Assembly (NCBI GenBank): GCA_965213675.1
Contig: CBDCAF010000018.1
Span: forward strand, 7,840 to 71,839
Origin: an uncultured Candidatus Binatia bacterium
Lineage (GTDB): Bacteria > Desulfobacterota > Binatia > UBA9968 > JAJDTQ01
Direction of reading: 5' to 3'
DNA length: 64,000 nucleotides
Below the pieces are notes generated by a model. The model worked only from the letters and a program-made list of their open reading frames with translations, was not told the DNA's origin and did no database searches. Positions 40,235-56,800 of the stretch are shown here, one piece after another; position 1 is the first letter of the stretch, and each line of letters begins with the position of its first letter. Position numbers and translations under genes: made by a program.

Positions 40235-40239
40235 GACCC

Positions 40240-43200
40240 ATGCCTGCGCCCGACCCACACACCCGCGCCCATCTCGAATGGCTCGGCTTCATCCAGCCGA
40301 ACGGCCTCGTGGTCTCCGCTCCGGCCCTGGTCAAGGCTGGGGCCATCCTCAACCGGCACGATGTCGAAGGGCAGGAGTTGCTGGACGCTTGGTTGAACCA
40401 ACGCGATGGATCGCCTGCGCGCCCTCGGGAACAGTGCCTCCAGGACTTCCGCGTATTCGCGAAGACCATCCTCGGCTGGGGTTTCTCGCCCAAGGGATAC
40501 GCGGGTACGGAGGAGACCCCTATCCCGGCGGCACTTAAGGTTCCTCTCCCCGACTACGGAGAGACGCTGCGTCCGGACTTCGCGGTGTGCGAGCGCGACC
40601 CGCAGGCCGGGGAATTGCCGTGGCAGTTGCTCGTGCAGGTGCTGGAAGAGGGTGAAGGCTTCGACAGGCCGACCGCCGGCGGACTGAAAACCTCTCCGCA
40701 GGATCGAATGGAGCGCCTCCTCCGCAGCACCGGAGTTCCTGCTGGTGTGCTCTTCAACGGCGCTGCGCTACGTCTCGTCTCGGCCCCGCGCGGCGAAAGC
40801 TCCGGCTGGATGGACTTTCGTTTGGCCGACATGGCCCAGACCGCGGGGCGGCCTCTGTGCGCGGCGTTGCGCCTTCTTTTGTGTGAGCAACGCCTGTTGA
40901 CAGGGCCGAAGGAACATCGCCTGGCGGCGCTGCTCGCCGACAGCCGCCGGTATCAGAACGAGGTCAGCGAGCGGCTTTCCGAGCAGGTCATGCACGCACT
41001 CTATGACCTCCTTCGAGGGTTCCAGGCGGCCCAGGACGAATCCCGCGGAGAGCTGCTGCGGGAACCGCTCTCCGCGGAAGGCGACCCCAACGACATCTAT
41101 CGCGGCCTTCTCGCCGTCATCCTCCGCCTCGTCTTTCTGCTCTACGCCGAGGAGCGCCGCATGCTTCCGGGCGGCGAGACCTTCATCCAGCACTATTCGG
41201 TTGGCGGCCTCTACCAGCGCCTGCGCGAGGAGGCGGCCTTGCACCCGGATACCATGGATCAGCGCTACGGCGCGTGGGCGCAGCTTCTCGTGCTGTTCCG
41301 CCTTATTCACGACGGGGCGGGTGGGCACAAGACCGGAGGCAGCGTCAGCCTTCCGGAACGCCGCGGCGTTTTGTTCAACCCGGATCGGTATCCGTTCCTC
41401 GAGGGCCGTCACAGCGGCGGCGGCCGGCAGATCACCGAGCGGGTCCAGCCGCCGCTGGTCTCCGACGGCGCCGTCTACCGGGTGCTGGAGAAGCTGGTAG
41501 TCCTCGACGGCGAGCGCATTTCCTACCGCACCCTGGACGTGGAACAGATCGGGTCCGTTTACGAGGTCATCATGGGCTTCCGTCTGGAGACCGCCACCGG
41601 CCGGTCCATGTCCGTCAAGTCCGCCAAGAAGCTTGGGGCGCCGAGCACCGTCGATCTCGACGAGTTGGCGAGACAGCCCGGCGAACGTCGTGGGAAATGG
41701 CTCCAGGACCGCGTGGACCGCACCCTCACCGACACCGTCAGGAAGGGACTGCGGGCAGCCGATACGGTGGATGACCTTCACTTGGCGCTGGACCGGGTGC
41801 TGGACAAGGACGCCACGCCGGACCTCGTCACTCCCGGCTCCCTGGTGCTGCAACCCAGTGATGAGCGCCGCCGCTCGGGCTCCAACTACACGCCGCGGGA
41901 ACTCACCGAACCGATTGTCCGCCACACTCTGGAGCCCCTGCTCAATCGGCTTCGCGGCGAGGATGGACAGGCACCGTCTCCCGCCCGGATTCTCGACCTC
42001 AAGATTTGCGATCCGGCCATGGGTTCCGGCGCCTTTCTGGTGGAAACCTGTCGCCAGCTCGCGGATGCGCTCACCGAGGCATGGCACAAGCACGATGAGA
42101 CGCCGGTAATCCCGCCTGACGAAGACGAGGGGATCCATGCCCGCCGTCTGGTCGCCCAGAAGTGCCTCTACGGCATCGACCGGAATCCCATGGCTGTGGA
42201 CCTGGCCAAGACCTCGCTGTGGCTCAGCACGTTGGCGCGGGACCACCCGCTCACCTTCCTGGACCACGCGTTCCGCCATGGCGACGCCCTCGTCGGATTG
42301 ACCCGGAAACAGGCCGAGGCGTTCCACTGGATCCCGGATAGACCTCCTGAAGAGGGTTTCGAGATCATGAGGGTGCGGGAACACATGACGGAGTTGGCCG
42401 CGCTGCGCCAGCGCATCAGGGACGCGGGCGAGGATGTCTCCGATCAAGAACTGCACGACATCTGGCAAGATGCGCGCGACGAGCTTGGCGCCGTCCGGCT
42501 CTACGGCGATCTGGCGCTGGCGGCGTTCTTCGCTGAAACCAAACGGGGGCCAAGGGAAGGGAAGAGGCGCGAATTCGCCGCAGCCGCCTGGGGTGGTCAG
42601 GCCGAGCGCTACCTGGGATGGATCGGGGACCAGCGCGGCAGCGACCCGCCGCTCGCTCCTTTCCACTGGGAAATCGAGTTCCCCGAGGTGTTCGAGCGCG
42701 AGAATCCGGGGTTCGACGCGTTCGTCGGGAACCCGCCGTTCGCCGGGAAAAATAGCGTCGTCGCTGGTAACGTCGTGGGTTATCCCGACTGGCTCAAGAC
42801 CGTCCACAGAGAGAGCCACGGCAACGCCGACCTTGTAGCGCACTTCTACCGGCGTGCGTTCAACCTCCTGCGTGAAGGGGGCGCGTTCGGTCTGATTGCC
42901 ACCAACACCATCGCCCAAGGCGATACCCGTTCCACCGGACTGCGCTGGATTTGCGAGAACAACGGCTCGATCTTCCGCGCCACCAAACGGGTCAAGTGGC
43001 CCGGCGACGCGGCCGTGGTGGTCAGCGTGCTGCACGTCGCCAAGGGCGAATTTGCAGGAACCAAGGTGCTCGACGGCAGGGATGTGGAGAACATCACCGC
43101 GTTCCTCTTCCACAAGGGCGGCCACGCCGACCCGGCGCGCCTCGAAGCGAACGCCGGCAAGAGCTTCCAGGGAAGCATCGTCCTCGGAATGGGCTTCACC

Positions 43201-45390
43201 TTTGACGACACGGACAAGAAGGGCGTCGCCAACCCGCTGTCGGAGATGCAGCGGCTGATCGAAGCAGACCCGCGCAACGGCGAGCGCATCTTCCCGTACA
43301 TCGGTGGCGAGGAGGTGAACACCAGCCCGACCCACGCCCATCACCGATACGTGATCAACTTTGAGGACTTTCCGTTGCGGAGGGAGGACCTGGGAAAGCA
43401 GTGGGCGGACGCGGGGGAAGACTTGCGCCGCACATGGCTGCGGCGCGGGGTGGTCCCGCTGGACTATCCGGAGCCGGTGGCAGCGGATTGGCCGGATTTG
43501 CTGGCGATTGTGGATGAGCGAGTGAGGCCGGAGCGAAGCAAGCTCACGAAGAATCCCATCGGTCGAAAGCGAGCGGAGTTCTGGTGGCGTTACGGCTCGA
43601 CGGCAAACGAACTCTACGCCGCCAGCGCCAGTCAGCCTCGAGTTTTGGTGATTTCGAGATACGGACAAGTTGCTGCATTCACGTTCTTGCCCGCCGGCGC
43701 TGTCTATAGCGATTCATGCATCATATTCCCGGTCGACACCTATGCCGCCCTGTGCGTCCTCCAGTCCCGCCCCCACGAGATCTGGGTGCGCTTCTTTGGC
43801 TCGTCGATGAAGGACGACCTCCGCTACACGCCATCCGACTGCTTCGAGACTTTCGCTTTTCCTGATGATTGGGCAACGGCCACGGCGCTGGAGGCCGCAG
43901 GCAAGGCGTATTTTGAGCACCGAGTGACGCTGATGCTCTGTAACGGTGAGGGTCTGACCAGAACCTTAAACCGCTTTCATGACCCCTACGATGGCAATCC
44001 GAATATCATCCGTCTCCGAGAACTCCACGCCGCCATGGACCGCGCCGTCCTCGACGCCTACGGCTGGACCGACATCCCCACCGACTGTGATTTCCTCCTC
44101 GACTACGAAATCGACGAGGCTACTTGGGGCGTGAAGAAAAAGCCGTACCGCTATCGCTGGCCCGACAAAATTTGCGACGAAGTCCTTGCTCGCCTTCTCG
44201 CCCTCAATGTTGAGCGTTCCGAAGAGGAAGCCCGTGCACGGCTGGTGCAGAAGCCGGTCCGAAAGAAACGCCATCGCGTCCTGATGGTGGCAGAACAACC
44301 TCCTCTCTGGGATCGTCCAATGACTGACCAGACTCCACAGCGGTTCACGCCGTTGGTGAAGCGCTCTCGTCCCAAGCCTTCGACGATCTATCCGGTTCTC
44401 TGGAAATTTGCGTGTGAGCGCCAGCGGGTCTATCTACGGCGCGTCGCAGGCGACCCAAGCCCGTGGACTACGGACACTGTGCTGTCAGAATACAAGTTCA
44501 CGAATGCCTTCAGAGCCGCTGACAGGGTGAGTCAGTACCTGATTCAGTTGATCTATTCTGATGCTAAGGCCAGCGGCGCCAACGTGTTTCTGAGAGCCCT
44601 TTTATTCAAGGTCTTCAACAAGATCGAGACGTGGGACAGGGTCGTTAACGGACTCGGCATGCCTGTCGCTCACGAGTTCGACTACGCGGCGTGCGACGAT
44701 TTGCTTGTCAATCTTCGTCGGCAGGGGGCGCCGATTTACTCCGCCGCTTACATCATGCCATCGGGAGGACGAGTCGGGATGCCGAAGCACCGGATGCATC
44801 TCGAACTGATTCGCAGAATGCTTGATGAACGCCTTCCGGAGAAGCTGCAGGAGTCGAAGTCGCTGGCTGAAGCCTACGAGATGGTTCTTTTGTATCCCAC
44901 GTTGGGACCCTTTCTCGCTTTCCAGTACGTTATCGACCTAAATTATTCGACCCTGATGAACCACTCGGAACAGAGATTCGTGGTTGCCGGCCCCGGCGCC
45001 TTGGATGGACTGTCCAAGTGCTTCGAGTCGCTTGGGGAGTATGATCCGGCCGACGCCATCCTATGGTTGTCCGACATCCAAGCGGACGAGTTCGCGCGGT
45101 ATGGACTCGAATTCGGGGGTCTATGGGGACGCCCGCTTCAGCCGATCGATGTCCAGAATCTGTTCTGTGAGGTCTCGAAGTACACTCGGGTGACACATCC
45201 AGAGATAAGAGGCCTGACCAAGCGTAAACGCATCAAGCAAAGATTTGCGATGACAGGGCCGCTCGCCAAGCCCTTCTTCCCGCCCAAATGGGGCTTGAAT
45301 CAACGAATTGACGAGTGGCTCCCGCGCCGAACGGGTGCAACTCTCGAACAACGCGAGCTTTTCTTCCCAACCCCAGCCAGGCCTACGTGA
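40240..45390 (+). CDS. drmMI: N6-adenine DNA methyltransferase (Eco57I/type IIG-like), DISARM DrmMI-like, fused to an extra C-terminal domain of about 356 aa (from 44320)
   Basis: SAM motif ICDPAMGSGAFLVE and catalytic FVGNPPFAGKN. ATG lies 5 nt after the drmD stop. The C-terminal part has no methylase motifs: LWKFACERQRVYLRR...PWTTDTVLSEYKFTNAFRAADRVSQYL. Confidence 0.8.
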   Translation: MPAPDPHTRAHLEWLGFIQPNGLVVSAPALVKAGAILNRHDVEGQELLDAWLNQRDGSPARPREQCLQDFRVFAKTILGWGFSPKGYAGTEETPIPAALKVPLPDYGETLRPDFAVCERDPQAGELPWQLLVQVLEEGEGFDRPTAGGLKTSPQDRMERLLRSTGVPAGVLFNGAALRLVSAPRGESSGWMDFRLADMAQTAGRPLCAALRLLLCEQRLLTGPKEHRLAALLADSRRYQNEVSERLSEQVMHALYDLLRGFQAAQDESRGELLREPLSAEGDPNDIYRGLLAVILRLVFLLYAEERRMLPGGETFIQHYSVGGLYQRLREEAALHPDTMDQRYGAWAQLLVLFRLIHDGAGGHKTGGSVSLPERRGVLFNPDRYPFLEGRHSGGGRQITERVQPPLVSDGAVYRVLEKLVVLDGERISYRTLDVEQIGSVYEVIMGFRLETATGRSMSVKSAKKLGAPSTVDLDELARQPGERRGKWLQDRVDRTLTDTVRKGLRAADTVDDLHLALDRVLDKDATPDLVTPGSLVLQPSDERRRSGSNYTPRELTEPIVRHTLEPLLNRLRGEDGQAPSPARILDLKICDPAMGSGAFLVETCRQLADALTEAWHKHDETPVIPPDEDEGIHARRLVAQKCLYGIDRNPMAVDLAKTSLWLSTLARDHPLTFLDHAFRHGDALVGLTRKQAEAFHWIPDRPPEEGFEIMRVREHMTELAALRQRIRDAGEDVSDQELHDIWQDARDELGAVRLYGDLALAAFFAETKRGPREGKRREFAAAAWGGQAERYLGWIGDQRGSDPPLAPFHWEIEFPEVFERENPGFDAFVGNPPFAGKNSVVAGNVVGYPDWLKTVHRESHGNADLVAHFYRRAFNLLREGGAFGLIATNTIAQGDTRSTGLRWICENNGSIFRATKRVKWPGDAAVVVSVLHVAKGEFAGTKVLDGRDVENITAFLFHKGGHADPARLEANAGKSFQGSIVLGMGFTFDDTDKKGVANPLSEMQRLIEADPRNGERIFPYIGGEEVNTSPTHAHHRYVINFEDFPLRREDLGKQWADAGEDLRRTWLRRGVVPLDYPEPVAADWPDLLAIVDERVRPERSKLTKNPIGRKRAEFWWRYGSTANELYAASASQPRVLVISRYGQVAAFTFLPAGAVYSDSCIIFPVDTYAALCVLQSRPHEIWVRFFGSSMKDDLRYTPSDCFETFAFPDDWATATALEAAGKAYFEHRVTLMLCNGEGLTRTLNRFHDPYDGNPNIIRLRELHAAMDRAVLDAYGWTDIPTDCDFLLDYEIDEATWGVKKKPYRYRWPDKICDEVLARLLALNVERSEEEARARLVQKPVRKKRHRVLMVAEQPPLWDRPMTDQTPQRFTPLVKRSRPKPSTIYPVLWKFACERQRVYLRRVAGDPSPWTTDTVLSEYKFTNAFRAADRVSQYLIQLIYSDAKASGANVFLRALLFKVFNKIETWDRVVNGLGMPVAHEFDYAACDDLLVNLRRQGAPIYSAAYIMPSGGRVGMPKHRMHLELIRRMLDERLPEKLQESKSLAEAYEMVLLYPTLGPFLAFQYVIDLNYSTLMNHSEQRFVVAGPGALDGLSKCFESLGEYDPADAILWLSDIQADEFARYGLEFGGLWGRPLQPIDVQNLFCEVSKYTRVTHPEIRGLTKRKRIKQRFAMTGPLAKPFFPPKWGLNQRIDEWLPRRTGATLEQRELFFPTPARPT

Positions 45391-46462
45391 TTTCGCGGTA
45401 AAGAAGTTGCCGTTGATTCATGTCGAGCGTTACGTGTCCTCCCTCGTGTTCCCGGAGAGACCTGAACACGCGATATCCTTTGAGAATGGCGGTTTCCCAC
45501 CGCCATAGGGGAAGTTTGGCGACCTCGAAGCCTTGTATGAACTCCTTTACGGCCTTGAGCAGGTCATAGTCGACCTGGTCGATATTGTCGTAGTAGTTCA
45601 TTTTCTTTGCCCGGCTGAATACAATGGCGGATACGGCCTCTTCGATAATTCTCGCCCGCGCACCGTCCTCGTTCTCGTCCACCAGTGGATCGCTCTTCCG
45701 CTTGCACTTCAGTAGGTGTCTTATGACAGGTGACCATCCGAGGTACACGGCGTAAGCGAAATGGAAAACATCGTGAAACCGGTAGAAGTCAGGCTGTCCG
45801 ATATTGTCCGTCAGGCGATCCCCGAAGTTCAGTCCGTTACACCGGAGTATGGCCGTCACCTTGCTGTCCCGCTGGACTTGGCGAAAGTCGATATCGAGTT
45901 TACGTGGGAGCTGTTCCTCTTCCGGGAAGCCCTCATCGAAGAAAGGTGGGACGACATACCTCTCGGGCCATCGGCTCTGCGTCTTTTCCTGGTTCGTTCG
46001 CGCGGCCTCGTAGAGGTCGACGCCGGCGCCTTCCGCAACGTGAAATAGGGCGTCCCAGGTTGGCCCAAGCCTTCCGGAATCCATTCGGTCACGGTTTTGC
46101 ACTGCACTGAGTAATTCGCCCGCCGCAACCCCGAGGGCCACTCCATCCCCCAAGGGTCCTGGGCTTCGCCCCGATAGGGCCTGCGCTCGCTTGTTCGCAC
46201 GGTTCAGTGCCGACGGATCAAGAATGGCGGAGAGGCGCGCCAAGTACCAAAGACAATCTCCGATTTCTTCGACGAGCCGCTTACGGTATGCGGGATAGGC
46301 GTCGGTTTCACGTTGTTCCTTTTTCAATTCGGCGAGAACACTCCCCGCTTCACCGAAAAGACCTGCCGCAAGGATGAGGGCGTGGTTCGGTTTGTCGACG
46401 AGTTGATCCGTTCGCTTTGCAGACTTGGCGTATTCAATGAGCCAAGACATCGGCTTTCTCAT
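45383..46462 (-). CDS. MazG-like (all-alpha NTP pyrophosphohydrolase) domain protein with a C-terminal extension
   Basis: Contains LAAGLFGEAGSVLAELKKEQRE...RLVEEIGDCLWYLARLS. C-terminal region has FGDRLTDNIGQPDFYRFHDVFHFAYAVYLGWSPV. The stop overlaps the drmMI 3' end by 8 nt. Confidence 0.65.
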   Translation of the reverse strand: MRKPMSWLIEYAKSAKRTDQLVDKPNHALILAAGLFGEAGSVLAELKKEQRETDAYPAYRKRLVEEIGDCLWYLARLSAILDPSALNRANKRAQALSGRSPGPLGDGVALGVAAGELLSAVQNRDRMDSGRLGPTWDALFHVAEGAGVDLYEAARTNQEKTQSRWPERYVVPPFFDEGFPEEEQLPRKLDIDFRQVQRDSKVTAILRCNGLNFGDRLTDNIGQPDFYRFHDVFHFAYAVYLGWSPVIRHLLKCKRKSDPLVDENEDGARARIIEEAVSAIVFSRAKKMNYYDNIDQVDYDLLKAVKEFIQGFEVAKLPLWRWETAILKGYRVFRSLREHEGGHVTLDMNQRQLLYREIT

Positions 46463-47228
46463 GTGCTTCCTTCAAGGAACGGAGATCGTCGAGCAGTTTC
46501 TGTAGCCGTCTTTCCGACCCCTCAAGGGTGGCATAAGACGAGTGGACCACCAGGGTGCCCATGTCCTGCCCGGTCTCTTTGGCGACACAATCCTGGAGGC
46601 GGGCCAAACCAAGCAGGTTGCCTGGTACCTTGTATCGGTAGTCATGGCTCCGGTAGAATGCTGTCAGGTGGACCGCACCAACGAAGAGCTTGAACGAAAG
46701 GTGGGAGAGACAAGGATCGCCCCGTCGGCGTTTACCGTCTTTCACCGTGTTGTAGAGGGGCATGTCGTATTCCCCTTCGGCGACATTAATGTCGTAACGG
46801 GATTTCATGGTTCCCTTGGTCGAAAGCTCCTTCTTCATATTGTCTATCATCTCCTTCAAGGGGTTCATGTCCGTGCCATCGGCTGTCTTTCGTCGAACCA
46901 GCCGATAGGCGTAGGTGTCCCAAAGGATCTTTGGATGCCGCTTGATCGCCGGAAAGGTCTTATCGGGGTAGTCGTCGTAGACGCCCTTCAGTCCCCGCCT
47001 GCGATATTCTGACAAGGGAAAGATCGTTTCGGCCACCGAGTGAATCGGTAGTTGGTTTTCGCCCATAAAGAAGTCATCGAGTTTTTGCTCTGCGGCCTTG
47101 GGATAGCCCCTCTTTCCCGGTTCTCCGATCTCCAGCACAAGGTTCAGCATGGGACCGTTGGACAACAGGAACTCGGCGGCGTCAACCCAGGCATCCATCC
47201 AGGCAGCGGTCTGGATCAATTTTGCCAT
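46434..47228 (-). CDS. Thymidylate synthase-fold (ThyA / pyrimidine hydroxymethylase-like) protein
   Basis: GDPCLSHLSFKLFVGAVHLTAFYRSHDYRYKVPGNLLGLARLQDCVAKETG aligns with E. coli ThyA [56 protein letters not shown] RBS. Confidence 0.65.
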   Translation of the reverse strand: MAKLIQTAAWMDAWVDAAEFLLSNGPMLNLVLEIGEPGKRGYPKAAEQKLDDFFMGENQLPIHSVAETIFPLSEYRRRGLKGVYDDYPDKTFPAIKRHPKILWDTYAYRLVRRKTADGTDMNPLKEMIDNMKKELSTKGTMKSRYDINVAEGEYDMPLYNTVKDGKRRRGDPCLSHLSFKLFVGAVHLTAFYRSHDYRYKVPGNLLGLARLQDCVAKETGQDMGTLVVHSSYATLEGSERRLQKLLDDLRSLKEAHEKADVLAH

Positions 47229-47857
47229 CACGTCACCTCCTCCGTGAGGGCCAGTAGGTCGCGTAGATGACGGGCGAGGAAGGCGTCGTCGAGCCATGCA
47301 TGGCCGTTGTCACCCCATTCGGCACCCCAGCTATTCCTGACCAGGAAGCACCGCGATGTATCGGCGGTCCCCAAACCGACCGCTACGACTGCGTGAAGAC
47401 CTCGGATCGGGCCGTCGTGCGAGATTAACCAAAGAGGTGTAGGCGACAAAAAGTCGTCTGGTATGGAAATGCCGAGAACAGGCGTTTGCCCAGCGTTTAG
47501 CAGGGTTTCGACCTCATCTGCGGTAGCATCCTTCTGAACGCTCTTGCGTGGGTACAGTCGCACGCCTGCCGGTGGCATCCAGCCGAGAGGCAAACCGTCG
47601 GGATAGTAGGGGCAGTCTGCTTCCGCGGGCTGCCCAGGGTCTTGCAGGGCACGAGATGTCTCCAGGAATGCTGCGCCATCCGTCGGATTGTGGACCGACG
47701 CAAAGTAGTGGAGATACTCCGGCGAGAGCGCCATCTTGGAGCCGCGCACGCGTTCGTGTGCGCTCGTGCAGGCAAATGATAGACATGTGGGCCGGGCGCC
47801 CTGGTCCCGAATCGGGCCGAGGCTTTGCCGGTGGTCGACGAGAACGGTGATGTTCAT
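47228..47857 (-). CDS. Papain-family (C1) cysteine peptidase without a signal peptide
   Basis: Contains IRDQGARPTCLSFA (Gln/Cys), GLHAVVAVGLG (His), VRNSWGAEWGDNGHAWL (Asn). Its ATG overlaps the upstream stop (ATGA). Confidence 0.75.
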   Translation of the reverse strand: MNITVLVDHRQSLGPIRDQGARPTCLSFACTSAHERVRGSKMALSPEYLHYFASVHNPTDGAAFLETSRALQDPGQPAEADCPYYPDGLPLGWMPPAGVRLYPRKSVQKDATADEVETLLNAGQTPVLGISIPDDFLSPTPLWLISHDGPIRGLHAVVAVGLGTADTSRCFLVRNSWGAEWGDNGHAWLDDAFLARHLRDLLALTEEVT

Positions 47858-48837
47858 GCTGCATTTGCCAGTGCGTCGAGTTTGGCTTTTCTCGGGAAGC
47901 CGCCGGATTCCTTTCCATGAGCATCGATTTTGATCGCGATATGGTCGAGTGTCGCGCCGCTCCATGGGCGGGCGTGTTCAAAGGCGAGTCGATGTGTGCC
48001 AGGAGTATTGAAACGGACATACACGACACGGGCTGAAGGCCGTCCATAGACTCTGTCCGAGTCTGCTGTGTGCTCTGCGATGACCTCGGAGCTGGCTCCG
48101 GTGTCGATGAGCCTCCAGATGTAGCCGGCGGAAACGTTGTCCTCCAGATGGACTGCGAAGAGATCGTCGGGTCCGGCTTCGAGAAACGTGTCGGTGTCAC
48201 CACAGGTCAAAGCCCAGACGTCGGCCCAGGAGTTCGTGATCAGTTCTGCGGGTGCCAACGCCCGCTTCAGTTCCTTGACCGGCGTCGCTTCGAGTTGTTT
48301 GGCTTCCGCGCGCGTAAGGACCTTGGACGTTACCAAACCCCAGCATGCGGCTTGGTAGCTGATGCCCAAGCGAAGGGAAAGTTGGTAGATGTTGCGCGGT
48401 TGATGCAGCTCTTGCCTTTTCCAGCCATGGCGTGTGGCGGATTCTACCATGAGCTGTTTTGATGCCAGCAGCTCCGAGGCAAAGGTGTCAGCGGCCACCT
48501 CCTCAATCGCACGTGACCCTGAAGCGTGACGTCCCGCGAACCCAACGGTTTTATCCAGGCTTGACTCATGCCCCAGCACCCAGTGTCCGAGCTCGTGGGC
48601 CAGTGTAAACCGCTGAACGGCCAGTCCCATGCGACTCGTAACGATGATGCCTCGGGCACCCTTGCCAGCGGGAACAACGGCGCCCCAAAGATGATCCAGC
48701 GGCCGAAAGACGAGGGGGATGTCCCGCGTGGTGATCGCGCTGACAATGTCGAAACTGGTGCGGTCACTCTTGGCAGTTGAGGCGAGAATCTTGGCTGCTT
48801 CTCTGACGGCTCGCAAAGTCTCGTTACGTCTGTTCAT
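47854..48837 (-). CDS. ImmA/IrrE-type Zn metallopeptidase domain fused to a chagasin-like (I42) cysteine-peptidase inhibitor domain
   Basis: HEXXH motif LAHELGHWVLGH. The C-terminus FAVHLEDNVSAGYIWRL...PGTHRLAFEHARPWSGA matches chagasin NPTTGFAW...AGTHAVNLTYMRPWTGP. Confidence 0.75.
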   Translation of the reverse strand: MNRRNETLRAVREAAKILASTAKSDRTSFDIVSAITTRDIPLVFRPLDHLWGAVVPAGKGARGIIVTSRMGLAVQRFTLAHELGHWVLGHESSLDKTVGFAGRHASGSRAIEEVAADTFASELLASKQLMVESATRHGWKRQELHQPRNIYQLSLRLGISYQAACWGLVTSKVLTRAEAKQLEATPVKELKRALAPAELITNSWADVWALTCGDTDTFLEAGPDDLFAVHLEDNVSAGYIWRLIDTGASSEVIAEHTADSDRVYGRPSARVVYVRFNTPGTHRLAFEHARPWSGATLDHIAIKIDAHGKESGGFPRKAKLDALANAA

Positions 48838-49186
48838 CCGGTTTCCTCGACCGCAGGAATTGGGCGAAACGAAGAACCTCCTCCCGGTCGGTCACCGACA
48901 GTTCAGCGGTCGCCCGTGCTACCAGTCGTACCGACTCCGGCTCCGGGCTCTCCAGATCGGGTCCGGTGAGGCTCTCCATGTTGGTCTGATAGAGCGTGGC
49001 AAGGCGCTGAAGTTCCAATGCATCGACACGTCGCGCCCGATTCTCCATGAGTGAAATGGCGGATCTGGGAAGGCCGAGATGTGCGGCAACCTCTTCCTGG
49101 GTGAACCCGCAGTATTCCCGCGCCTCCTTTAGCCGCGTGCTCAGGGTGCCACGCTTGGCTGGCTGGCCGTGATTATCGTCGTTCAT
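48824..49186 (-). CDS. XRE-family helix-turn-helix transcriptional regulator
   Basis: Contains LKEAREYCGFTQEEVAAHLGLPRSAISLMENRARRV. 14-nt overlap with the ImmA-like gene. Confidence 0.85.
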   Translation of the reverse strand: MNDDNHGQPAKRGTLSTRLKEAREYCGFTQEEVAAHLGLPRSAISLMENRARRVDALELQRLATLYQTNMESLTGPDLESPEPESVRLVARATAELSVTDREEVLRFAQFLRSRKPDEQT

Positions 49187-49220: not shown

Positions 49221-49616
49221 TCAGGAGATCTTTCTCATCATTTCGGGTACAAGATGATCGATCATGTCGTCGATGCTCTGGTAACCTCCAGGACGAATCA
49301 GCCGAACGTCAATGGGGCGACCTAGGTATCGCTGAAAAATCGGAGAGCTGCGGGCCACAGCCTTTGAGTCCAACTCAGGCATGGAATCCCACAGGTCGGA
49401 GTTGCTCCTGTCACTGACCATTCCGTTACGACTCGCTTCCACTTGTAAATCCCAGTCTCCCATCTCCTGACTCGCCCATTCCCTGAGTTCTTTTCTCAAG
49501 AGGGCCTCCTTGTTCGGCCCACGGCCCCTCACGGTCCTCAGCGTGGAGGTATCCCAGAACGAAAGGGGAATCTGGGATGAAGATTTAGGGGCTTGGGTAG
49601 GGATTTTGTGTTCCAT
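49221..49616 (-). CDS. Hypothetical protein; the C-terminal half resembles a phosphopantetheine carrier domain
   Basis: ELDSKAVARSSPIFQRYLGRPIDVRLI..GYQSIDDMIDHLV resembles the PCP/ACP pattern GxDS[LK]xAV...F...L...SI..L..HL. Located 34 nt downstream of the PPTase gene. Confidence 0.45.
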   Translation of the reverse strand: MEHKIPTQAPKSSSQIPLSFWDTSTLRTVRGRGPNKEALLRKELREWASQEMGDWDLQVEASRNGMVSDRSNSDLWDSMPELDSKAVARSSPIFQRYLGRPIDVRLIRPGGYQSIDDMIDHLVPEMMRKIS

Positions 49617-49650: not shown

Positions 49651-50322
49651 TCAAACATTGCGTTGGGGCAATTCCGGCTGTTGTGACAACAAGGCAACTG
49701 AGCCCACCCAGGGACGGACGGCGGTGGTGCAGCAAACCTCTACAGCGATTCGGTCGAAATGAGCAACGCCGTTCATCATCCCTTGTGGCGCAACTTCCTT
49801 CCACGAGAGTCGTACGTTGTCGTAGCCGAATCGGACACCAAGAACAGGGTTCAAAGCCTTGAAAACGGCTTCCTTCACCGACAGTAGGATCACCGAGCCT
49901 GCAACACCCCAGTCCAGAGGCAACTCGTCGGACGCGATCAGTCCTTTGATTGACAGGAGTTCCCGACCGCGGTCCAGAGTCTCGATGTCGATGCCGACGG
50001 ACCTCACGTGACTGATCCGAGATAGCCCAGCCACAACTTTGGTGCCTTTATGGCTCACGCTCCCCGTGTAACCCGGTGGCCAGTCTCGGGCGCCGGAGGC
50101 GAGGTGCCCTGGCTCATTGGCAGACAGCCCAGCACTCTCCAGCAGATTGGTCAGACAGGTCGCCGTGGCCTTCCGTCTCGCGCGTTCCACGACGGGGACA
50201 CGTTCAGCGGACAGGACGTCCTGAGGGCCTGGTAGCCAATGCGCAAAAGAACCGCCCCTGATGCTCACTTCAGGTGCCAAGCGTTTGAGTTCGTCAACGA
50301 GGGGGTCACGTTGCAGATACAT
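49651..50322 (-). CDS. 4'-phosphopantetheinyl transferase (EntD/Sfp-type)
   Basis: Trimmed to MYLQRDPLVDEL. Contains WPPGYTGSVSHKG, VGIDIE, LSVKEAVFKAL. Confidence 0.75.
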   Translation of the reverse strand: MYLQRDPLVDELKRLAPEVSIRGGSFAHWLPGPQDVLSAERVPVVERARRKATATCLTNLLESAGLSANEPGHLASGARDWPPGYTGSVSHKGTKVVAGLSRISHVRSVGIDIETLDRGRELLSIKGLIASDELPLDWGVAGSVILLSVKEAVFKALNPVLGVRFGYDNVRLSWKEVAPQGMMNGVAHFDRIAVEVCCTTAVRPWVGSVALLSQQPELPQRNV

Positions 50323-50504
50323 GGTTTGATTTTTGCCGTTTACGGGTCTGCGTGGGGTCGATATCGGTTGGGTGCCGTGACGACGGCTGGCTTCTCGTTG
50401 TCTCCCGTGCCCCAGTTCTTCCGCTTGGGGCATATCGTCTCATCGGGTAACCTATTCTATAGGCCGCCGGTTCCGTGGGCGAGCCCCCATTGGACGCGAT
50501 CCTG

Positions 50505-50903
50505 ATGGAAGCCAAACTCAAGCACCTTGAATTTATCCAGGGCGTAGTGAATCGCCTAGCGTCTGACTCCTTCCGAATGAAGGGCTGGGCGGTGGCCTTG
50601 GTTGCTGCGTTCTTTGTCCTGTTGGCAAGGGAAGGACGGATCGAATTTGCCCCGATAGCCGTGGTTCCCGTGCTTGTCTTCTGGGGACTCGACGGCTACT
50701 TCCTGTGGCAGGAACGTCTCTTCCGTGCCCTGTACGATCACGTTCGGCGTGTGAGTGAAGTCGACATTGACTTCTCCATGGATGTCGGCCCGTTTCGAAT
50801 GGGCTGGCGACGAACTTGGTTGGGCGCAACATTCTCGAAAACGCTGATCTTCTTCTACGGCGCGTTGACCATCGCTGTCGGCTTGGTGACGTGCATCTAC
50901 TGA
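50505..50903 (+). CDS. Small integral membrane protein (about 3 TM helices)
   Basis: Contains GWAVALVAAFFVLLA, IAVVPVLVFWGLDGYFLW, LIFFYGALTIAVGLVTCIY. An alternative GTG start is at 50475. Confidence 0.6.
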   Translation: MEAKLKHLEFIQGVVNRLASDSFRMKGWAVALVAAFFVLLAREGRIEFAPIAVVPVLVFWGLDGYFLWQERLFRALYDHVRRVSEVDIDFSMDVGPFRMGWRRTWLGATFSKTLIFFYGALTIAVGLVTCIY

Positions 50904-50922
50904 CCGCGAGGAGACACATCCA

Positions 50923-51420
50923 ATGACACGCAGGGTGTTCTACAGCTTTCACTACAACGCCGACAACTGGCGAGCTGCCATGGTGCGCAATATCGGCAGT
51001 ATCGAAGGGAGCAGCCCCGCATCGGACAACGACTGGGAGGCCGTGAAGAGGGGCGGGGAAGCAGCGATCAGGAAATGGATCGCCAACCAAATGCAATACC
51101 GCTCCTGTACAGTCGTACTGGTCGGGTCGAATACTGCGAACCGCAAGTGGATCAACCACGAAATCGTCAAGTCGTGGGATGACGGTATGGGTGTGATAGG
51201 GATCCACATTCACGGGCTGAAGGATGCCGACGGCAATACGTCAGCCCGAGGAGCCAATCCGTTTGACTTCATCACGCTTGGAGATTCTGCGAAGCGGCTA
51301 TCATCCATAGTGAGGTGTTGTGTTCCCGGCGGCAGCAATAGTCAGGAGAAATATGCCTGGATCTCGAAGCACCTCGCGAATGCAGTAGAAGAAGCCATAA
51401 AAATACGAAACAATAATTGA
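50923..51420 (+). CDS. ThsB-like TIR domain protein (DUF1863 / MTH538 TIR-like)
   Basis: Contains RVFYSFHYNADNWRAAMVRN, CTVVLVGSNTANRKWINHEI, GVIGIHIHGL. Confidence 0.7.
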   Translation: MTRRVFYSFHYNADNWRAAMVRNIGSIEGSSPASDNDWEAVKRGGEAAIRKWIANQMQYRSCTVVLVGSNTANRKWINHEIVKSWDDGMGVIGIHIHGLKDADGNTSARGANPFDFITLGDSAKRLSSIVRCCVPGGSNSQEKYAWISKHLANAVEEAIKIRNNN

Positions 51421-52673
51421 AGACCGCTATCGTCTGTATGAAAGCATCCATCGAGCAACCCAACCCTGGAGCCGATCCCGGAACGATCACGCGCGTAGCC
51501 CTGCGTAACTACAAAAGCATTGCCGCCTGCGATGTCGAGTTGACGCCGCTCACTGTCCTCGTGGGTCCCAACGGTTCCGGCAAGAGTAATTTCCTTGACG
51601 CCCTGTGCTTTGCGGCGCAGGCATTGCGTTTTTCTCTGCACCATGCTGTACACGAGCGCGGTGGGATCAACGAGGTGCGCCGGCTTTCCCACGGCCATCC
51701 CAACCGCTTTGGCATCCGTCTGGATTTCCGTTTGTCCGACGCAACAGGGTGGTACGCGTTCAAGATCGGAGTGCGACGGAACGGCGGCTGTGTCGTACAC
51801 CGCGAGGAATGTGCTATCCAACACGCCGACCCTGGAGAAAGGCAGTATTTCCGAATAGGCGACGGTCGTCTACTGTCTACCTCCATCCCACACCCGCCGC
51901 CGACAGGTGGAAGTGACCGACTTTACCTACAGTCGGCCTCAGGATTTCGAGCGTTCCGGCCGATTTACGATATGTTGGCGGGAATGGGGTTCTACAATCT
52001 CAAGCCGGACCGGATTCGAGACTTCCAGTCGCCGGACCGCGGGGATCTCCTCAAACGGAATGGAAGCAACATCGCCAGCGTTCTCGCCAACCTTGAGTCA
52101 CGTTCCCCAGAGGTTGCAACACGGGTCGGCCAATACCTGTCCAAGGTCGTCCCGGGAACGGTCGGCGTGGCGTCGAAGACGGTCGGACCCAAGCTGACCC
52201 TGGAGTTTTGTCAGCAGGTGCGTGGCGATCCGCACCCTCGGCGGTTTCTTGCCAACAACGCTTCAGAAGGGACGTTGCGGGTCGTCGGGGTACTCGTAGC
52301 GCTTTGTCAGAGTATCGGAGTGGAATCGGGGAACGTGAAACTGGTCGGCATCGAAGAACCGGAAGGCACCCTTCACCCTGCGGCTGCCGGAGTGCTGTCC
52401 GACATACTGCGCGAGGCGAGCGAGCGTGTGCAGGTTGTCGTCACCAGCCAGAGTGCGGACTTGTTGGATCGGAAAACGATTCCATTGGAATCCATCCTGG
52501 CGGTCGTCTCCGAGGACAATGAGACGAAAATTGCCCGGCTTGATGCGGCAGGCCACACGGCACTCCGGGAAGATATGTTCACGGCGGGGGAGATGCTTCG
52601 GATGAATCAGCTTACGCCGAATCCAAAGCAGGTGGCGCCCGTTCACCTGGACCTCTTCCGTAAGGAGGAGTAG
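51417..52673 (+). CDS. ABC/SMC-type AAA ATPase (AAA_21/COG4637-like)
   Basis: Walker A LVGPNGSGKSNFLDAL, signature-like ASEGTLRVVGVL, Walker B LVGIEEPEGTLHP. The TTG start overlaps the TIR stop by 4 nt. An alternative ATG is at 51438. Confidence 0.75.
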   Translation: MKTAIVCMKASIEQPNPGADPGTITRVALRNYKSIAACDVELTPLTVLVGPNGSGKSNFLDALCFAAQALRFSLHHAVHERGGINEVRRLSHGHPNRFGIRLDFRLSDATGWYAFKIGVRRNGGCVVHREECAIQHADPGERQYFRIGDGRLLSTSIPHPPPTGGSDRLYLQSASGFRAFRPIYDMLAGMGFYNLKPDRIRDFQSPDRGDLLKRNGSNIASVLANLESRSPEVATRVGQYLSKVVPGTVGVASKTVGPKLTLEFCQQVRGDPHPRRFLANNASEGTLRVVGVLVALCQSIGVESGNVKLVGIEEPEGTLHPAAAGVLSDILREASERVQVVVTSQSADLLDRKTIPLESILAVVSEDNETKIARLDAAGHTALREDMFTAGEMLRMNQLTPNPKQVAPVHLDLFRKEE

Positions 52674-52698
52674 GGGAAGGTGTCAAGGAGGCGTGTTC

Positions 52699-53049
52699 AT
52701 GCCGCGCAACACATCGGTTTCTCTCGGGTATCACTTCATCGGTTTCATCGACGAGCGTGTGCAGTCCGGTCGTTACAACTCGGCAAGCGATGTGGTGCGC
52801 GCCGGGCTGCGGCTGTTGGAAGAGCACGAAGCCAAGGTTGAGGCTCTGAGGGAAGCCCTCATCGAAGGCGAGCAATCCGGTCCGGCGACACCGTTTGACT
52901 TCGACGCGTTCATTACCCGCAAGAAGACTACTCAGGACGGTCAAGAGGGCCGTCCTGAGACCCAGTCCGAGTTTGCCAGCCAAGACCGCTACCCGGCCGG
53001 CCATGAAACGGGACGCCTGAACCGAGACGACATTGACGAAGGCGGTTAG
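52699..53049 (+). CDS. parD: ParD-family (RHH) antitoxin-like protein with an atypical C-terminal tail of about 35 aa
   Basis: Contains MPRNTSVSLGYHFIGFIDERVQSGRYNSASDVVRAGLRLLEEHEAKVEALREALIEGEQSGPATPFDFDAF. Confidence 0.8.
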   Translation: MPRNTSVSLGYHFIGFIDERVQSGRYNSASDVVRAGLRLLEEHEAKVEALREALIEGEQSGPATPFDFDAFITRKKTTQDGQEGRPETQSEFASQDRYPAGHETGRLNRDDIDEGG

Positions 53050-53461: not shown

Positions 53462-53842
53462 ATGACCTACCGAGAGCCATTGCCCCCTGGATGTCCGCCG
53501 AACCCCGCGGACGAAATCAACCTGCCACGTGAGCTGTTCCGGTTGGTGCGGAGCCTTCCACCCGCCGCAGAGGACTTCAGATCGTGGCGCGCGGAACAAC
53601 CGCAACGCGGTTTACCGAAGGAGTTGACGGAGTGCCAAGCCCGGGGACTGTCGGTCTATGCAGAGCGCTACGACCTGGAGAGCATCTTGAAGCTCCCGAA
53701 GTTCCGCGGACGTTGGATCTGTCGCCTGCGGCTGGGAGCGGGCGCGGGCCGGATTCAACAGACGGGGAGACCTTCGCACCATACTTGGTGGCCGCTGGCT
53801 GATTACGATTTCCTCGGCCAGTGTCACGTGGAAACGGCATGA
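53462..53842 (+). CDS. Hypothetical protein translationally coupled to drmA
   Basis: 126 aa. Its stop overlaps the drmA ATG (ATGA at 53839-53842). Composition resembles the flanking DISARM genes. No motif recognised. Confidence 0.55.
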   Translation: MTYREPLPPGCPPNPADEINLPRELFRLVRSLPPAAEDFRSWRAEQPQRGLPKELTECQARGLSVYAERYDLESILKLPKFRGRWICRLRLGAGAGRIQQTGRPSHHTWWPLADYDFLGQCHVETA

Positions 53843-56800
53843 GTACGATCCGTTACACCGCCAGTCTGCTGTACTACGACGGCCCACAGATCATCGAAGC
53901 CCGCGACGATGAGGGTCACGATTATCTGGCGTTGTTGGTGGAGAGTGACGGGGAAGACCGCTATCTGGCCGTGGAGGTTGCCGCTGATCGGTTGCACCAA
54001 TTTCGCAATGGTTCGCTGGACTTGAGGACGCTGCTGACCGAGTCGGCGAAGAATGGGTGGTATCTGACGACGACCGCGGATCTCGATCAACCGTTGACGA
54101 TTGTGCGCCAGCAGACGCCGGTCGGGGAAAGCGGATTTCTTCCCGCGGACGGCTTTGTGCTGCATGAATTGGGCTCGCCCGTTGAGCGCAAGCAAGAGAG
54201 CGTTGAGATGCCCACGAGACCGCCGAAGCTTGCCGACTCCGCTGAAGCGCGCGCCGAAATCACCCGCGCCCTCCGCCTGGACCTCGTCGGCCCCGGCGCG
54301 GACGGCTATCTCGCCGACGAGCAACTCCCCGGTTGGGTGCGTCCGTCCAACTGGTACCTCACCGGCTTCCTTGTTCCACGCTATGCCGGCTTTGAGCAGC
54401 GCGCCGATGCGGACTCGGACGATGAGATGGAGCCGGAGGTCTGCGAGGACATAGGCGCTGGCGACGACTCCAGCGAAGACCGTCGTGCCGCCAAGGCGGG
54501 GTTCTTTCCGTCGTCCATGGGTTTGAGCTTTCTCGCGGCGCCGGGGACCGACCGTGTCACCGCGGTCGTGCGCTGGGGCGACTACCGGAAGGTCGAGGGC
54601 AAGGTTTCCGCTGAAGAGGGAAGCGAATTGCCGGTTCGGTGGCAACGCACGCGGTGCGAAGCAACCCTGTCCATGGTCTTGCCGGAAGACAATTCGCCGC
54701 GGCATCTGCCTGTGCCCCACTCACGGGGCCTCGAAGTCCACGTCGTGGCCCGGACCATGGACGCGAGCCTCTTTGCCGGGAAGATCGCTCGGGACACGCG
54801 CTCCGTCTCCGTATTTCTGGTCAACGCCCGAGCACCGGCCGAGGACGACCGGCGGGACGAGGCATTTGCCTTTCAAGCACAGATCGAAGTGCAGTCCGAT
54901 GTCCCTTTCGCCGTGCGGCCCGACCTTCGCCCTGTATCGGGCGACAACTGGGATGAACGGGTGGCCGACCTGCACTATGCCGATGTTCCCGAGTATGCTT
55001 CCGGGCACGGCGTGGCAGCGACTTGGGAGGTCCGGGGCGGCGCCTGTCATGCCTTGCGAACGGACTGGACGCCCATCGCGGAAGTGGAGCATACCGAGCC
55101 GCTCACACACCTTGCCCGAACCGAACTGGACATGACTGCGCTGGGCCGGCTCGCCGATGGCGAGGCCGTGCGAACGGCTCTGATGCCGCTGGTATCCGGA
55201 TACCGTGAGTGGGTCGAAGCGCATGCACTCGGAGACCTCCCGGAGCAGCGGAAAGAGGTCGCTCGGGAGTTGCTGCACCGTGCCCGCCTGGCGGCAAGGC
55301 GCATGGAAAAGGGCATCGGCGTACTGGCCTCCGATGTGGAGGCGCGAGATGCTTTCTGCATGGCCAACCGGGCCGTCGCTGCGGCATTGGCGCGGCGCAT
55401 CGAAGACCCTCCCCGGTGGCGCGCCTTCCAACTCGCATTCGTGCTGTTGAACCTGCCCGGAATCGCCGACCCTTCCGATCCCGAGCGCGAGATCGTCGAC
55501 CTGCTGTTTTTTCCCACCGGCGGCGGCAAGACCGAGGCGTATCTCGGTCTGGCGGCCTTCACCATGGCGTTGCGGCGGCTGCGCAACCCTGCGGACAACG
55601 GACGCGCTGGCGCCGGCGTCAGCGTCATCATGCGGTATACGCTACGCCTGTTGACACTGGACCAACTCGGTCGCGCCGCCGCGCTGGTGTGCGCGATGGA
55701 ACTTGAACGTAAACGCGATGTTGAACGCTACGGCGTGTGGCCGTTCGAGATCGGCCTGTGGGTCGGCAAGGCGGGCACTCCCAACTGGCTCGGCAAGAAG
55801 GGCGACCGCAATTCGGATTCCGCGCGTGCCAAGGTCAACCGGTACAAGGACAATCCGCAGGCTCGGCCCATACCCATCCCGCTGGAGAACTGTCCCTGGT
55901 GTGCCCACAGGTTCACGCCCGATTCCTTTGCGCTGCTGCCGAACGCCGACGCGCCCACGGATTTGCGCATTTCTTGCTCGAACTGGGAATGCGAGTTTTC
56001 CGGCGACCCGCCGCTTCCTATCGTTGCTGTGGACGAGCCCCTGTACCGGCGTCTGCCGGCCTTTCTGATTGCCACGGTGGACAAGTTCGCGTCTCTGCCT
56101 TGGGTTGGACAGTCCGGGGCGCTGCTCGGCGGCGCGGACCGCTTCGATGACGAAGGGTTCTACGGCGCCGCCGACCCGCGAACAGGGAATCCGCTCACGA
56201 CGCCGTTGTTGCCGCCCGATCTGGTGATTCAGGACGAGATGCACCTCATCTCCGGGCCGCTCGGCACCATGACCGGCTTGTACGAGGCGGCCATCGAGAC
56301 GCTGTGCGTGCGCGAGGCGGAGGGCCGGATCGTAAGGCCGAAGATCGTCGCCTCTACCGCCACCGTGCGGCAGGCCCACGAGCACATCCAGGCGCTTTTC
56401 GCCCGGCCCGACACCCAGGTGTTTCCGCCGCCGGGGCCGGACCGTCGCGATTCGTTCTTCGCCCGCACGGTCCCGGCCGCTGAGAAGAACGCTCGTCAGT
56501 ACGTTGGCGTCGTGGCCCAGGGGCGCAACCCCAAGGTGGTGATGCGCCGGGTGCTGCTGGCGCTGATGGCCGCGGCGGAGCGCGTCTGGCGGGACGCCGG
56601 CGGCCCGGGCAACAAGCAAAATCCCGCCGACCCGTACATGACGGCTCTCGGCTACTTCAACAGCCTGCGGGAACTCGGCGGGGCACGGCGGATTCTGGAA
56701 GAGGAAGTGCAGAATACGCTGAAGGGCTACAGCAACCGCAAGCGGCTCAATGAAGCGACGAGTCTGTTCCGTGATCGCACACGGTTCTCGGACGTAGTGG

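Follow-up and report, generated by a model that had tools for sequence, protein, structure and literature searches.

A coupled XRE repressor, ImmA–chagasin fusion and papain-type peptidase at the head of a conserved cassette within a Binatia DISARM locus

The stretch of 64,000 nucleotides (nt) from an uncultured Candidatus Binatia bacterium that was analyzed here (contig CBDCAF010000018.1, referred to as the window) contains three translationally coupled genes on its minus strand, encoding an XRE/CapH-like helix-turn-helix (HTH) repressor, a fusion of an ImmA/IrrE (M78) metallopeptidase domain with a chagasin-family (I42) inhibitor domain (ImmA-I42), and a papain-type C1A cysteine peptidase. 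An initial annotation had interpreted this triad as a three-gene switch resembling a toxin–antitoxin (TA) system. The triad and the coupling of its genes are real, however, it is not free-standing but heads a conserved cassette of eight genes, which comprises a 4'-phosphopantetheinyl transferase (PPTase)-like gene, a gene for a small protein, the triad, and the genes for a thymidylate-synthase-like protein, a MazG-MazG_C fusion and a HMUDK_hel domain protein. We assign a probability of roughly 50% to the reading that the triad forms a repressor-protease-inhibitor switch, similar to the Rosmer and CapH/CapP systems, at the head of a mobile anti-phage operon. The earlier interpretation is partly supported in this way, and needs to be widened from the triad to the cassette and narrowed with respect to inhibition and toxicity.

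The ImmA-I42 fusion and its neighboring peptidase

The gene for ImmA-I42 (47854-48837; genes of the cassette lie on the minus strand unless stated otherwise) encodes a protein of 327 amino acids (aa). Comparison with Pfam identified Peptidase_M78 (PF06114) at residues 61-165 with 38.7 bits at a cut-off of 22, and Inhibitor_I42 (PF09394) at residues 224-302 with 40.6 bits at a cut-off of 27.2. The PADLOC capP model matched with 7e-16, covering exclusively the first 164 residues of the protein and positions 8-146 of the 242-position profile. In the AlphaFold2 model, which had a predicted local distance difference test score (pLDDT) of 84.1 and a predicted template modeling score (pTM) of 0.85, the C-terminal domain was all-beta, and helices occurred at residues 141-194. 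The protein was divided into a zinc-metallopeptidase domain (about residues 1-140, 48418..48837), a helical linker corresponding to the HTH-like middle domain of IrrE/CapP (about residues 141-196, 48250..48417), the I42 domain (about residues 197-305, 47923..48249) and a C-terminal tail (47857..47922). When the C-terminal domain was compared with solved structures by Foldseek, the best matches in the PDB were the I42 inhibitors EhICP2, amebosin, chagasin and PbICP-C, with E-values reaching 1e-5 and target-normalised TM-scores of 0.62-0.71; complexes of chagasin with cathepsin L and falcipain-2 and the ICP of Pseudomonas aeruginosa were matched as well. The N-terminal 170-185 residues, approximately, matched IrrE (3dti, 6e-5), PprI (8sln, 8e-5) and CapP (7t5t, 4e-4), and the alignments to IrrE and CapP covered 169-186 columns. 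A sequence profile compared with the PDB sequences returned the same two sets of matches, including amoebiasin-2 and chagasin for I42. Taken together, sequence and model indicate that the C-terminal domain is a beta-sandwich of the I42 chagasin fold, which stands in for the GAF sensor domain of CapP and IrrE.

The motif FTLAHELGHWVLGH and the loop motifs NVSAGYIW, YGRPS and ARPWSG, by which the initial annotation had recognized an ImmA/IrrE domain with HEXXH motif and a chagasin domain, were all found in the protein. The zinc site of the M78 domain consists of H81-E82-x-x-H85 and E113, and the three inhibitor loops are L2 SAGYIW (236-241), L4 YG (264-265) and L6 RPW (290-292). In an alignment of 97 homologues of the fusion (A1), H81, E82, H85, E113, S236-A237-G238-Y239-x-W241, Y264-G265 and R290-P291-W292 were invariant or nearly so. 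A second alignment of divergent members with 28-52% identity to the window protein (A5) retained HELGH, E113, G238, W241, G265 and W292 without exception, and R290 and P291 were conserved to at least 90%. Hidden Markov models, model-based fold comparison and invariant residues all agree with the earlier assignment of both domains. The I42 domain is followed by a tail with the sequence GKExxGxPRxxR and a short helix, modeled at a low pLDDT of 58-61, which is common to the aligned fusion proteins and could be a site of cleavage or of contact, or else a degron. Within this tail, G308, E310, G313 and R316 were invariant in A1, and in A5 only G313 was invariant, with E310 conserved to at least 90%.

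The next gene (47228..47857) encodes the C1A peptidase. Its open reading frame (ORF) had been listed as 47228-47965, but the real start is the ATG at position 47857, yielding a product of 209 aa in which the catalytic cysteine is residue 25. The product matched Pfam Peptidase_C1 (PF00112) with 39.8 bits at a cut-off of 20.7, and 233 relatives of 209-210 aa were obtained by homology search. Among 80 homologues, Q19, C25, H155, N175, S176 and W177 were invariant, and also the peptidases of divergent loci retain Q, C, H and N-S-W, none of them with more than about 25 residues ahead of the catalytic cysteine. The family profile matched the mature forms of Der f 1 (1e-16) and cathepsin K (1e-15) from end to end, and Foldseek matched the model of the peptidase to C1A enzymes. 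As the profile alignment starts about 5 residues into the mature enzymes, the peptidase has neither a propeptide nor a signal peptide. It thus deviates from the usual zymogen form of C1A enzymes with an inhibitory N-terminal propeptide, a trait that is typical but not strictly defining for the family. With at most about 25 residues preceding the catalytic cysteine, the peptidase would be constitutively active unless inhibited. The identification of this overlapping gene as encoding a C1 peptidase with the complete Gln/Cys/His/Asn set and without signal peptide is borne out by these results. Clusters of 168-aa peptidases were also considered as cases of toxin inactivation, and this was rejected: the one locus examined (L254; loci are numbered with the prefix L) belongs to a low-coverage assembly with several split genes, so the truncations are probably due to frameshift errors.

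Upstream of ImmA-I42, the 120-aa XRE repressor (48824..49186) matched Pfam HTH_31 (1.7e-10) and HTH_3 (1.4e-9) as well as PADLOC capH (1.1e-11), and a GGAGG ribosome-binding site is located 7 nt 5' of its ATG. The reading frames of XRE and ImmA-I42 share 14 nt, the stop codon of ImmA-I42 and the start codon of the peptidase gene overlap as ATGA, and the peptidase stop overlaps the start of the thymidylate-synthase-like gene as TGATG, behind a GAGGAGG ribosome-binding site.

Proteins of the same architecture are seen in hundreds of database entries. A search with ImmA-I42 identified 723 relatives, of which the best 120 were nearly all about 327 aa in length and almost all contained both Pfam domains. 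The I42 domain alone gave 182 matches among 1.84 billion representative proteins; a large share of the best 150 of these were 320-350 aa in length and carried the domain at about residues 200-330. Nine divergent examples of the fusion all scanned as M78 plus I42. The family forms dozens of clusters at 50% identity and ranges across at least six bacterial phyla and one haloarchaeal plasmid, so that the initial annotation, which had asked for such a search in other genomes, was concerned with a member of a diverse family. Hosts include Binatia, Thermodesulfobacteriota, Vicinamibacterales, Longimicrobiales, Paracoccus, Rhizobium, Bradyrhizobium, Burkholderia, Sphingomonadaceae, a gammaproteobacterial metagenome-assembled genome (MAG) and a plasmid of Haloarcula marina, and the loci were distributed over Binatia, Thermodesulfobacteriota, Acidobacteriota, Gemmatimonadota, Alpha-, Beta- and Gammaproteobacteria and the Haloarcula plasmid. 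Among cultured strains, Rhizobium leguminosarum WSM1689, Burkholderia glumae BGR79S and H. marina carry the cassette on plasmids. The belief that the fusion had not been described before holds in part. Full-text literature searches combining chagasin with ImmA, defense, TA or nucleotide enzymes returned no description of it, although Burroughs et al. 2015 and Iyer et al. 2013, which most probably introduced MazG_C and HMUDK_hel, may mention the neighborhood; however, the proteins are common in public genomes under generic RefSeq names ('ImmA/IrrE family metallo-endopeptidase', 'protease inhibitor I42 family protein' and 'C1 family peptidase').

Loci were gathered from genomes, metagenomes, exact-protein look-ups and plasmids, and tblastn, HMMER and phmmer were used to find counterparts of the window proteins in them. 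About 31 distinct loci contained an I42-bearing ImmA and enough downstream sequence. An intact C1 peptidase gene was located directly 3' in 28 of these, at a distance ranging from a few bases to some tens of bases, and the ATGA overlap or a near-zero gap between the two genes was conserved across loci. The exceptions were L009, in which only a remnant occurred, and L010 and L247, which had none. The XRE gene was found directly 5' of the fusion gene at every locus with upstream sequence except L247. No peptidase without an I42-bearing ImmA was seen among the loci examined, whereas the converse occurs in L009 and L010, an asymmetry that is expected of an antitoxin/toxin pair. Among the 97 and 80 homologues, conservation was highest at the HExxH motif with its glutamate, at the three loops of the I42 domain and at the Gln/Cys/His/Asn set of the papain-type enzyme, down to 28-36% identity. 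Gene coupling and the near-obligatory linkage are in line with the earlier view that an intracellular peptidase is kept next to a tethered inhibitor domain.

Variant layouts were observed as well. A protein of about 160 aa with the N-terminus VFISHRHEDD, which we take to resemble a TIR domain, is encoded 3' of the peptidase in L006 (9893-10384) and in place of the peptidase in L009 (9717-10190) and L010 (9090-9563), both of which keep the I42-bearing ImmA. L247 (295-5935) encodes a 454-aa protein, in which an HTH is located at the N-terminus and an I42 domain at the C-terminus, next to a 1373-aa STAND/NACHT-type NTPase, a layout suggesting that the I42 domain can couple to other immune modules.

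Compared to known pairs of chagasin/ICP and C1A peptidase, e.g., chagasin and cruzipain, the window proteins share the inhibitor fold and the loops L2 (xxGYxW), L4 (G) and L6 (RPW), and the C1A peptidase is encoded next door. In Trypanosoma, the inhibitor regulates an endogenous peptidase (bioRxiv 10.64898/2026.06.02.729523), as is proposed here. However, known I42 inhibitors are free-standing proteins of about 110 aa, whereas the domain described here makes up the C-terminal part of a metallopeptidase in the cytoplasm, and its partner peptidase lacks a prodomain. The I42 domain probably inhibits the neighboring peptidase directly. Bacterial chagasin homologues studied so far are extracytoplasmic, either secreted or lipoproteins, and proteases of the host are regarded as their targets (bioRxiv 10.64898/2026.06.02.729523). 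By analogy with what has been proposed for chagasin-like inhibitors of Pseudomonas, the I42 domain might be aimed at a cysteine protease of a phage or a eukaryotic host, with the C1 gene adjacent by coincidence, and the L247 fusion, with no peptidase in view, would fit this idea. We consider it hardly conceivable, as ImmA-I42 has no signal peptide and is joined to a cytoplasmic regulator, and as a coupled peptidase gene directly follows in those 28 loci from distant phyla.

The surrounding cassette and its genomic setting

The order of genes in the cassette recurs across loci down to about 24-40% identity. Downstream of the peptidase, the window encodes a thymidylate-synthase-like protein of 264 aa (46434..47228), which retains the PC(L/H) cysteine motif and matched NCBIfam TIGR03283 (4.8e-10) and, just under the cut-off, Pfam Thymidylat_synt (5e-5). 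A gene for such a protein of about 260 aa comes after the peptidase in most loci. It is followed in the window by a gene for a 359-aa fusion of a MazG pyrophosphohydrolase with MazG_C (45383..46462; Pfam MazG_C 1.8e-78 and MazG 5e-5, PHROG 229 MazG-like); MazG-C has been termed a predicted nucleotide kinase (PMC13092281). The last member is the HMUDK_hel domain (44278..45390, plus strand; Pfam PF18723, 3.5e-94), the helical domain of 5-hydroxymethyldeoxyuridine DNA kinases. In the window, it constitutes about the last 355 residues of the DrmMI ORF, in frame, whereas elsewhere it is encoded by a separate gene for 343-347 aa that is convergent to the cassette (e.g., L081, 13245-14288). In L084 (9599-14729), the closest metagenomic relative, the tblastn pieces of DrmMI and HMUDK_hel abut with a one-base offset in different frames. 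The DrmMI-HMUDK_hel fusion of the window may be real, or may result from a lost stop codon or an assembly artefact.

The nucleotide enzymes differ between loci, MazG-MazG_C with a convergent HMUDK_hel gene being the commonest set. Alternatives are a second thymidylate synthase, dTMP kinase, a metallophosphatase or a uracil-DNA glycosylase. On plasmids of Rhizobium (L252, 9450-10130) and Burkholderia (L253, 9536-10219), a convergent gene of the uracil-DNA-glycosylase family replaces MazG_C and HMUDK_hel 3' of the thymidylate-synthase-like gene. The triads of L004, L006, L011 and L248 occur without any thymidylate-synthase, MazG or HMUDK gene. On the H. marina plasmid (L251, NZ_CP100410.1, 64717-79664), the cassette lies beside a restriction endonuclease and a dTMP kinase and consists of genes for a PPTase-like protein, the small protein, XRE, ImmA-I42, the C1 peptidase, a protein of about 268 aa and a 'nucleotide kinase domain' protein; its presence on a haloarchaeal plasmid indicates that the system spans the boundary between bacteria and archaea.

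Part of this gene content resembles DS-4 of E. coli, a system found by DefensePredictor and validated as anti-phage, which consists of thymidylate synthase, a kinase, HMUDK_hel, TIR and Nmad2 (PMC13092281). MazG and MazG-C are listed among predicted defense domains in the same study (PMC13092281). Both systems possess homologous HMUDK_hel proteins (BLASTP 2e-25), an enzyme of thymidylate-synthase fold and a nucleotide kinase or pyrophosphatase, although no BLASTP similarity was detectable between the two thymidylate-synthase-type proteins. DS-4 also has a TIR gene, and some loci related to the window add a putative one. In contrast, DS-4 lacks the module of XRE, ImmA-I42 and C1 peptidase, and the proteins of the cassette yielded neither an Nmad domain (Nmad2 included) nor an aGPT-Pplase or P-loop 5-HMUDK kinase domain. 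We consider it rather likely that the cassette acts against phages.

Upstream of XRE, two further genes belong to the cassette. The first codes for a small conserved protein of 131 aa (u131, 49221..49616), identified by alignment (A4) and synteny, which has an invariant D-S-K motif, gave no match in Pfam, PADLOC, NCBIfam or PHROG, and is encoded directly 5' of XRE in most loci, even in the phage-like L248. The second encodes a protein resembling Sfp-type 4'-phosphopantetheinyl transferases (49651..50433, true start likely near 50322), with weak Pfam matches to ACPS and 4PPT_N and NCBIfam matches to PptT/Npt/EntD; for the orthologues in L244 and L250, the ACPS and 4PPT_N matches are not marked as weak. 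Papain-fold enzymes with a Cys-His-Asn triad include transferases and amidases. Together with the conservation of these two genes upstream, this would allow the papain-fold enzyme to be a thiol hydrolase or transferase in nucleotide or carrier chemistry, acting, e.g., on a group attached to PPTase-modified u131, and gated by the I42 domain. Such a function appears very improbable. The enzyme aligns over its entire length with genuine C1A endopeptidases, I42 inhibitors are by family definition known only against C1 peptidases, and the triad occurs without a PPTase-like gene in L014, L092, L248, L252 and L253. In addition, u131 as an acyl carrier protein for the PPTase-like gene was not supported, as its profile matched neither acyl carrier proteins (hhalign against E. 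coli AcpP, probability 0.2%) nor any solved structure.

The cassette is located within a class-1 DISARM locus, as identified by PADLOC, between the genes for DrmD (36893-40234) and DrmMI (40216-45390) on one side and those for DrmA (53821-57621) and DrmB (57531-59447) on the other. A block of about 9 kb, which is lower in GC and carries at least three other gene sets, interrupts the locus; GC content is 55-60% in the region of 44-54 kb compared to about 65% elsewhere in the window. Besides the cassette, the insert contains a two-gene PDC-M50 candidate adjoining it, with the membrane protein PDC-M50A and the ThsB-like TIR protein PDC-M50B, followed with an overlapping start by a HEC-01A-like AAA ATPase (50475-51420 and 51417-52673, plus strand). 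A further ORF for 118 aa (52693-53049, plus strand) may encode an antitoxin of the ParD/CopG type. In DISARM, BREX and type I restriction-modification loci, embedded genes mostly belong to defense systems (bioRxiv 10.1101/2024.01.29.577857).

The cassette is mobile. Integrases and a primase flank it in L244, an integrase is located close to it in L250 and on the Burkholderia plasmid L253, the fusion occurs on many plasmids, and in the gammaproteobacterial MAG the cassette is inserted among housekeeping genes, those of leucine catabolism. In L248 (7642-9714) and L249, XRE, ImmA-I42 and the peptidase are part of a replicon with Prim-Pol, AAA_24 and a family-A DNA polymerase, without nucleotide-enzyme cargo. 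An origin of the fusion in phages was considered and rejected, as no fusion was found in IMG/VR viral contigs, INPHARED phages or the viral structure library BFVD. ImmR/ImmA pairs classically govern the induction of integrative and conjugative elements (ICEs) and prophages. A mobile element might accordingly employ the triad as an induction switch of this type, with the protease pair as part of the induction circuit, to drive hypermodification of thymidine by hydroxymethylase, MazG, kinase and HMUDK_hel and to shield its DNA from restriction during transfer. The integrases, the plasmids and the L248/L249 replicon agree with such a role, and phage thymidylate-synthase and 5-HMUDK pathways yield hypermodified thymidine (PMC5889632, PMC8989533). 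We nevertheless regard this role as improbable: apart from the lack of the fusion in the three viral collections, the cassette of the gammaproteobacterial MAG is situated between leucine-catabolism genes without mobility genes in the flanks examined, that of the window lies inside DISARM, the P-loop 5-HMUDK kinase domain and aGPT-Pplase were not detected in the cassette, and the related HMUDK_hel system DS-4 is a validated defense.

Comparison to known repressor-protease and toxin-antitoxin systems

In CapP and IrrE, an HTH-like linker joins the peptidase domain to a GAF domain, and single-stranded DNA (ssDNA) bound in the groove between peptidase and GAF domain activates cleavage of CapH or DdrO (PMC13228613, bioRxiv 10.1101/2022.04.27.489752). 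CapH/CapP, IrrE/DdrO and ImmR/ImmA have in common with the window proteins that an XRE repressor adjoins an M78 HExxH peptidase, and the PADLOC models capH and capP matched both; such pairs are also known beside defense systems including DISARM. In contrast to CapP, the GAF domain with its ssDNA groove is replaced by I42 in the window protein, which also has no cysteine-switch loop. While capH and capP are encoded divergently, upstream of and on the opposite strand from their cargo, the window pair is co-directional and overlaps the genes downstream. With the GAF domain absent and the genes co-directional, ImmA-I42 is an M78 member that lacks two characteristics of CapP.

The location of I42 in the GAF position permits a reading in which binding of the peptidase controls ImmA. 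The peptidase would then be the ligand of the ImmA sensor domain, as ssDNA is for the GAF domain, and its binding or release would switch ImmA to XRE cleavage, leaving the downstream nucleotide enzymes as effectors; the cue could be cysteine oxidation or engagement with a phage protein. In favor of such a sensor, I42 sits exactly at the regulatory position of CapP and IrrE, the high full-length pTM of ImmA-I42 suggests a fixed orientation of the M78 and I42 domains to each other, in most loci the next gene after that of the peptidase is the thymidylate-synthase-like one, whose start overlaps the peptidase stop, and nucleotide-enzyme sets such as DS-4 can defend alone. However, the invariant catalytic residues imply that the peptidase must cleave something, as a mere ligand would be free to drift, and in the triads without nucleotide genes (L004, L006, L011 and L248) it is the sole candidate output. 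A pure sensor role is for these reasons rather unlikely. Invariant catalysis and stand-alone triads favor a real proteolytic output, which may consist in killing or in signaling.

The ImmA domain is an experimentally validated hub antitoxin in RosmerTA defense systems, in which it is paired with varied toxins (PMC10440598), and the TA-like logic suggested by the initial annotation thereby has a published precedent. RosmerTA and NetFlax have in common with the window that, in a phage-defense context, a protein with ImmA-protease domain is found together with a variable partner, which is harmful (putatively so in the window). PADLOC also yielded weak RmrA matches, which were split over two window proteins, XRE (4e-8, N-terminal part of RmrA) and ImmA-I42 (5.6e-6). 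RmrA is a fusion of HTH and M78, whereas HTH and peptidase are separate here, with a fused HTH...I42 form in L247. The partner encoded in the window is a C1A peptidase, while neither a papain-type toxin nor chagasin is mentioned for RosmerTA (PMC10440598), and the predicted neutralizing surface is an identifiable, dedicated inhibitor domain. The window cassette further adds five conserved genes, four of which are co-oriented with the triad and one, HMUDK_hel, convergent. Three-component TA systems of the omega-epsilon-zeta type resemble the triad in the order of repressor, neutralizer and harmful enzyme (putative here) with overlapping frames. They differ in that the putative neutralizer of the window is itself an M78 protease, which probably destroys the repressor, and that the putative harmful enzyme is a protease.

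Proposed operation of the switch and its implications

Based on these similarities, the switch may operate as follows. The I42 domain would plug the active-site cleft of the co-translated peptidase and thereby replace the missing prodomain, and ImmA-I42 would take an antitoxin-like role toward the peptidase, comparable to that known from Rosmer systems. XRE would repress the operon and would be cleaved by the ImmA domain upon infection or DNA damage, in the way CapP, IrrE and ImmA cleave their XRE partners (PMC13228613, bioRxiv 10.1101/2022.04.27.489752). Derepression would lead to elevated levels of the thymidylate-synthase-like protein, MazG-MazG_C and HMUDK_hel, which would alter the pyrimidine nucleotide pool or the DNA. 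If ImmA-I42 were lost, cleaved or out-titrated, the free cysteine peptidase would cut host or phage proteins. That the peptidase is a toxic effector rather than a regulator is possible, with doubt somewhat prevailing, as the conserved cassette around the triad suggests that the peptidase may be a regulator instead.

Several points weigh against the proposed anti-phage switch. Release of the peptidase, which we purely infer, is the weakest part of the mechanism. Chagasins bind their target peptidases very tightly, and with such binding, with inhibitor and peptidase produced together in stoichiometric amounts and with no obvious freeing route, it is difficult to see how the enzyme would become active. 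Scans for promoters, terminators and inverted repeats around the operon returned nothing above chance and no candidate operator. The model of the peptidase reached a pLDDT of 74.9, and its L-domain was poorly modeled. The peptidase, the thymidylate-synthase-like protein and MazG_C are not covered by PADLOC models. The orientation of the cassette is opposite to that of the flanking DISARM genes, unlike 96.7% of embedded defense genes, which are oriented like the flanking system (bioRxiv 10.1101/2024.01.29.577857). Finally, L247 contains an I42 fusion without C1 peptidase in view, and the L248/L249 replicon resembles a phage or plasmid, which may indicate that the triad serves the element itself.

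Drawn further, the triad might be an immune switch of prokaryotes resembling securin-separase or IAP-caspase, a constitutively active, cytoplasmic papain-type protease being held by an inhibitor that is tethered to a second, signal-responsive protease. Infection would destroy or displace ImmA-I42, and in this way derepress a nucleotide-poisoning operon and at the same time free the protease as an effector or activator. This extension is tentative and, in our estimate, rather unlikely. If true, it would suggest that the pairing of chagasin and C1A peptidase began in prokaryotic conflict systems and reached protozoa later.

We could not find an earlier description, in the literature searches, of a combination of an ImmA-hub TA or CapH/CapP-like switch with an I42-C1A pair and nucleotide-modifying defense. 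If the proposed switch is correct, it would provide an endogenous partner for prokaryotic chagasin domains, which have so far been viewed chiefly as directed against host proteases, and a cytoplasmic C1A protease would join the caspase-like, Lon and metallopeptidase examples in prokaryotic immunity. Among ImmA-hub TA systems of the Rosmer type, the present one would be a case in which neutralization occurs via a recognizable inhibitor domain. The cassette ties the switch to genes for thymidylate synthase, MazG and HMUDK_hel, a class recently shown to be anti-phage, and could show how such genes are kept silent until needed.

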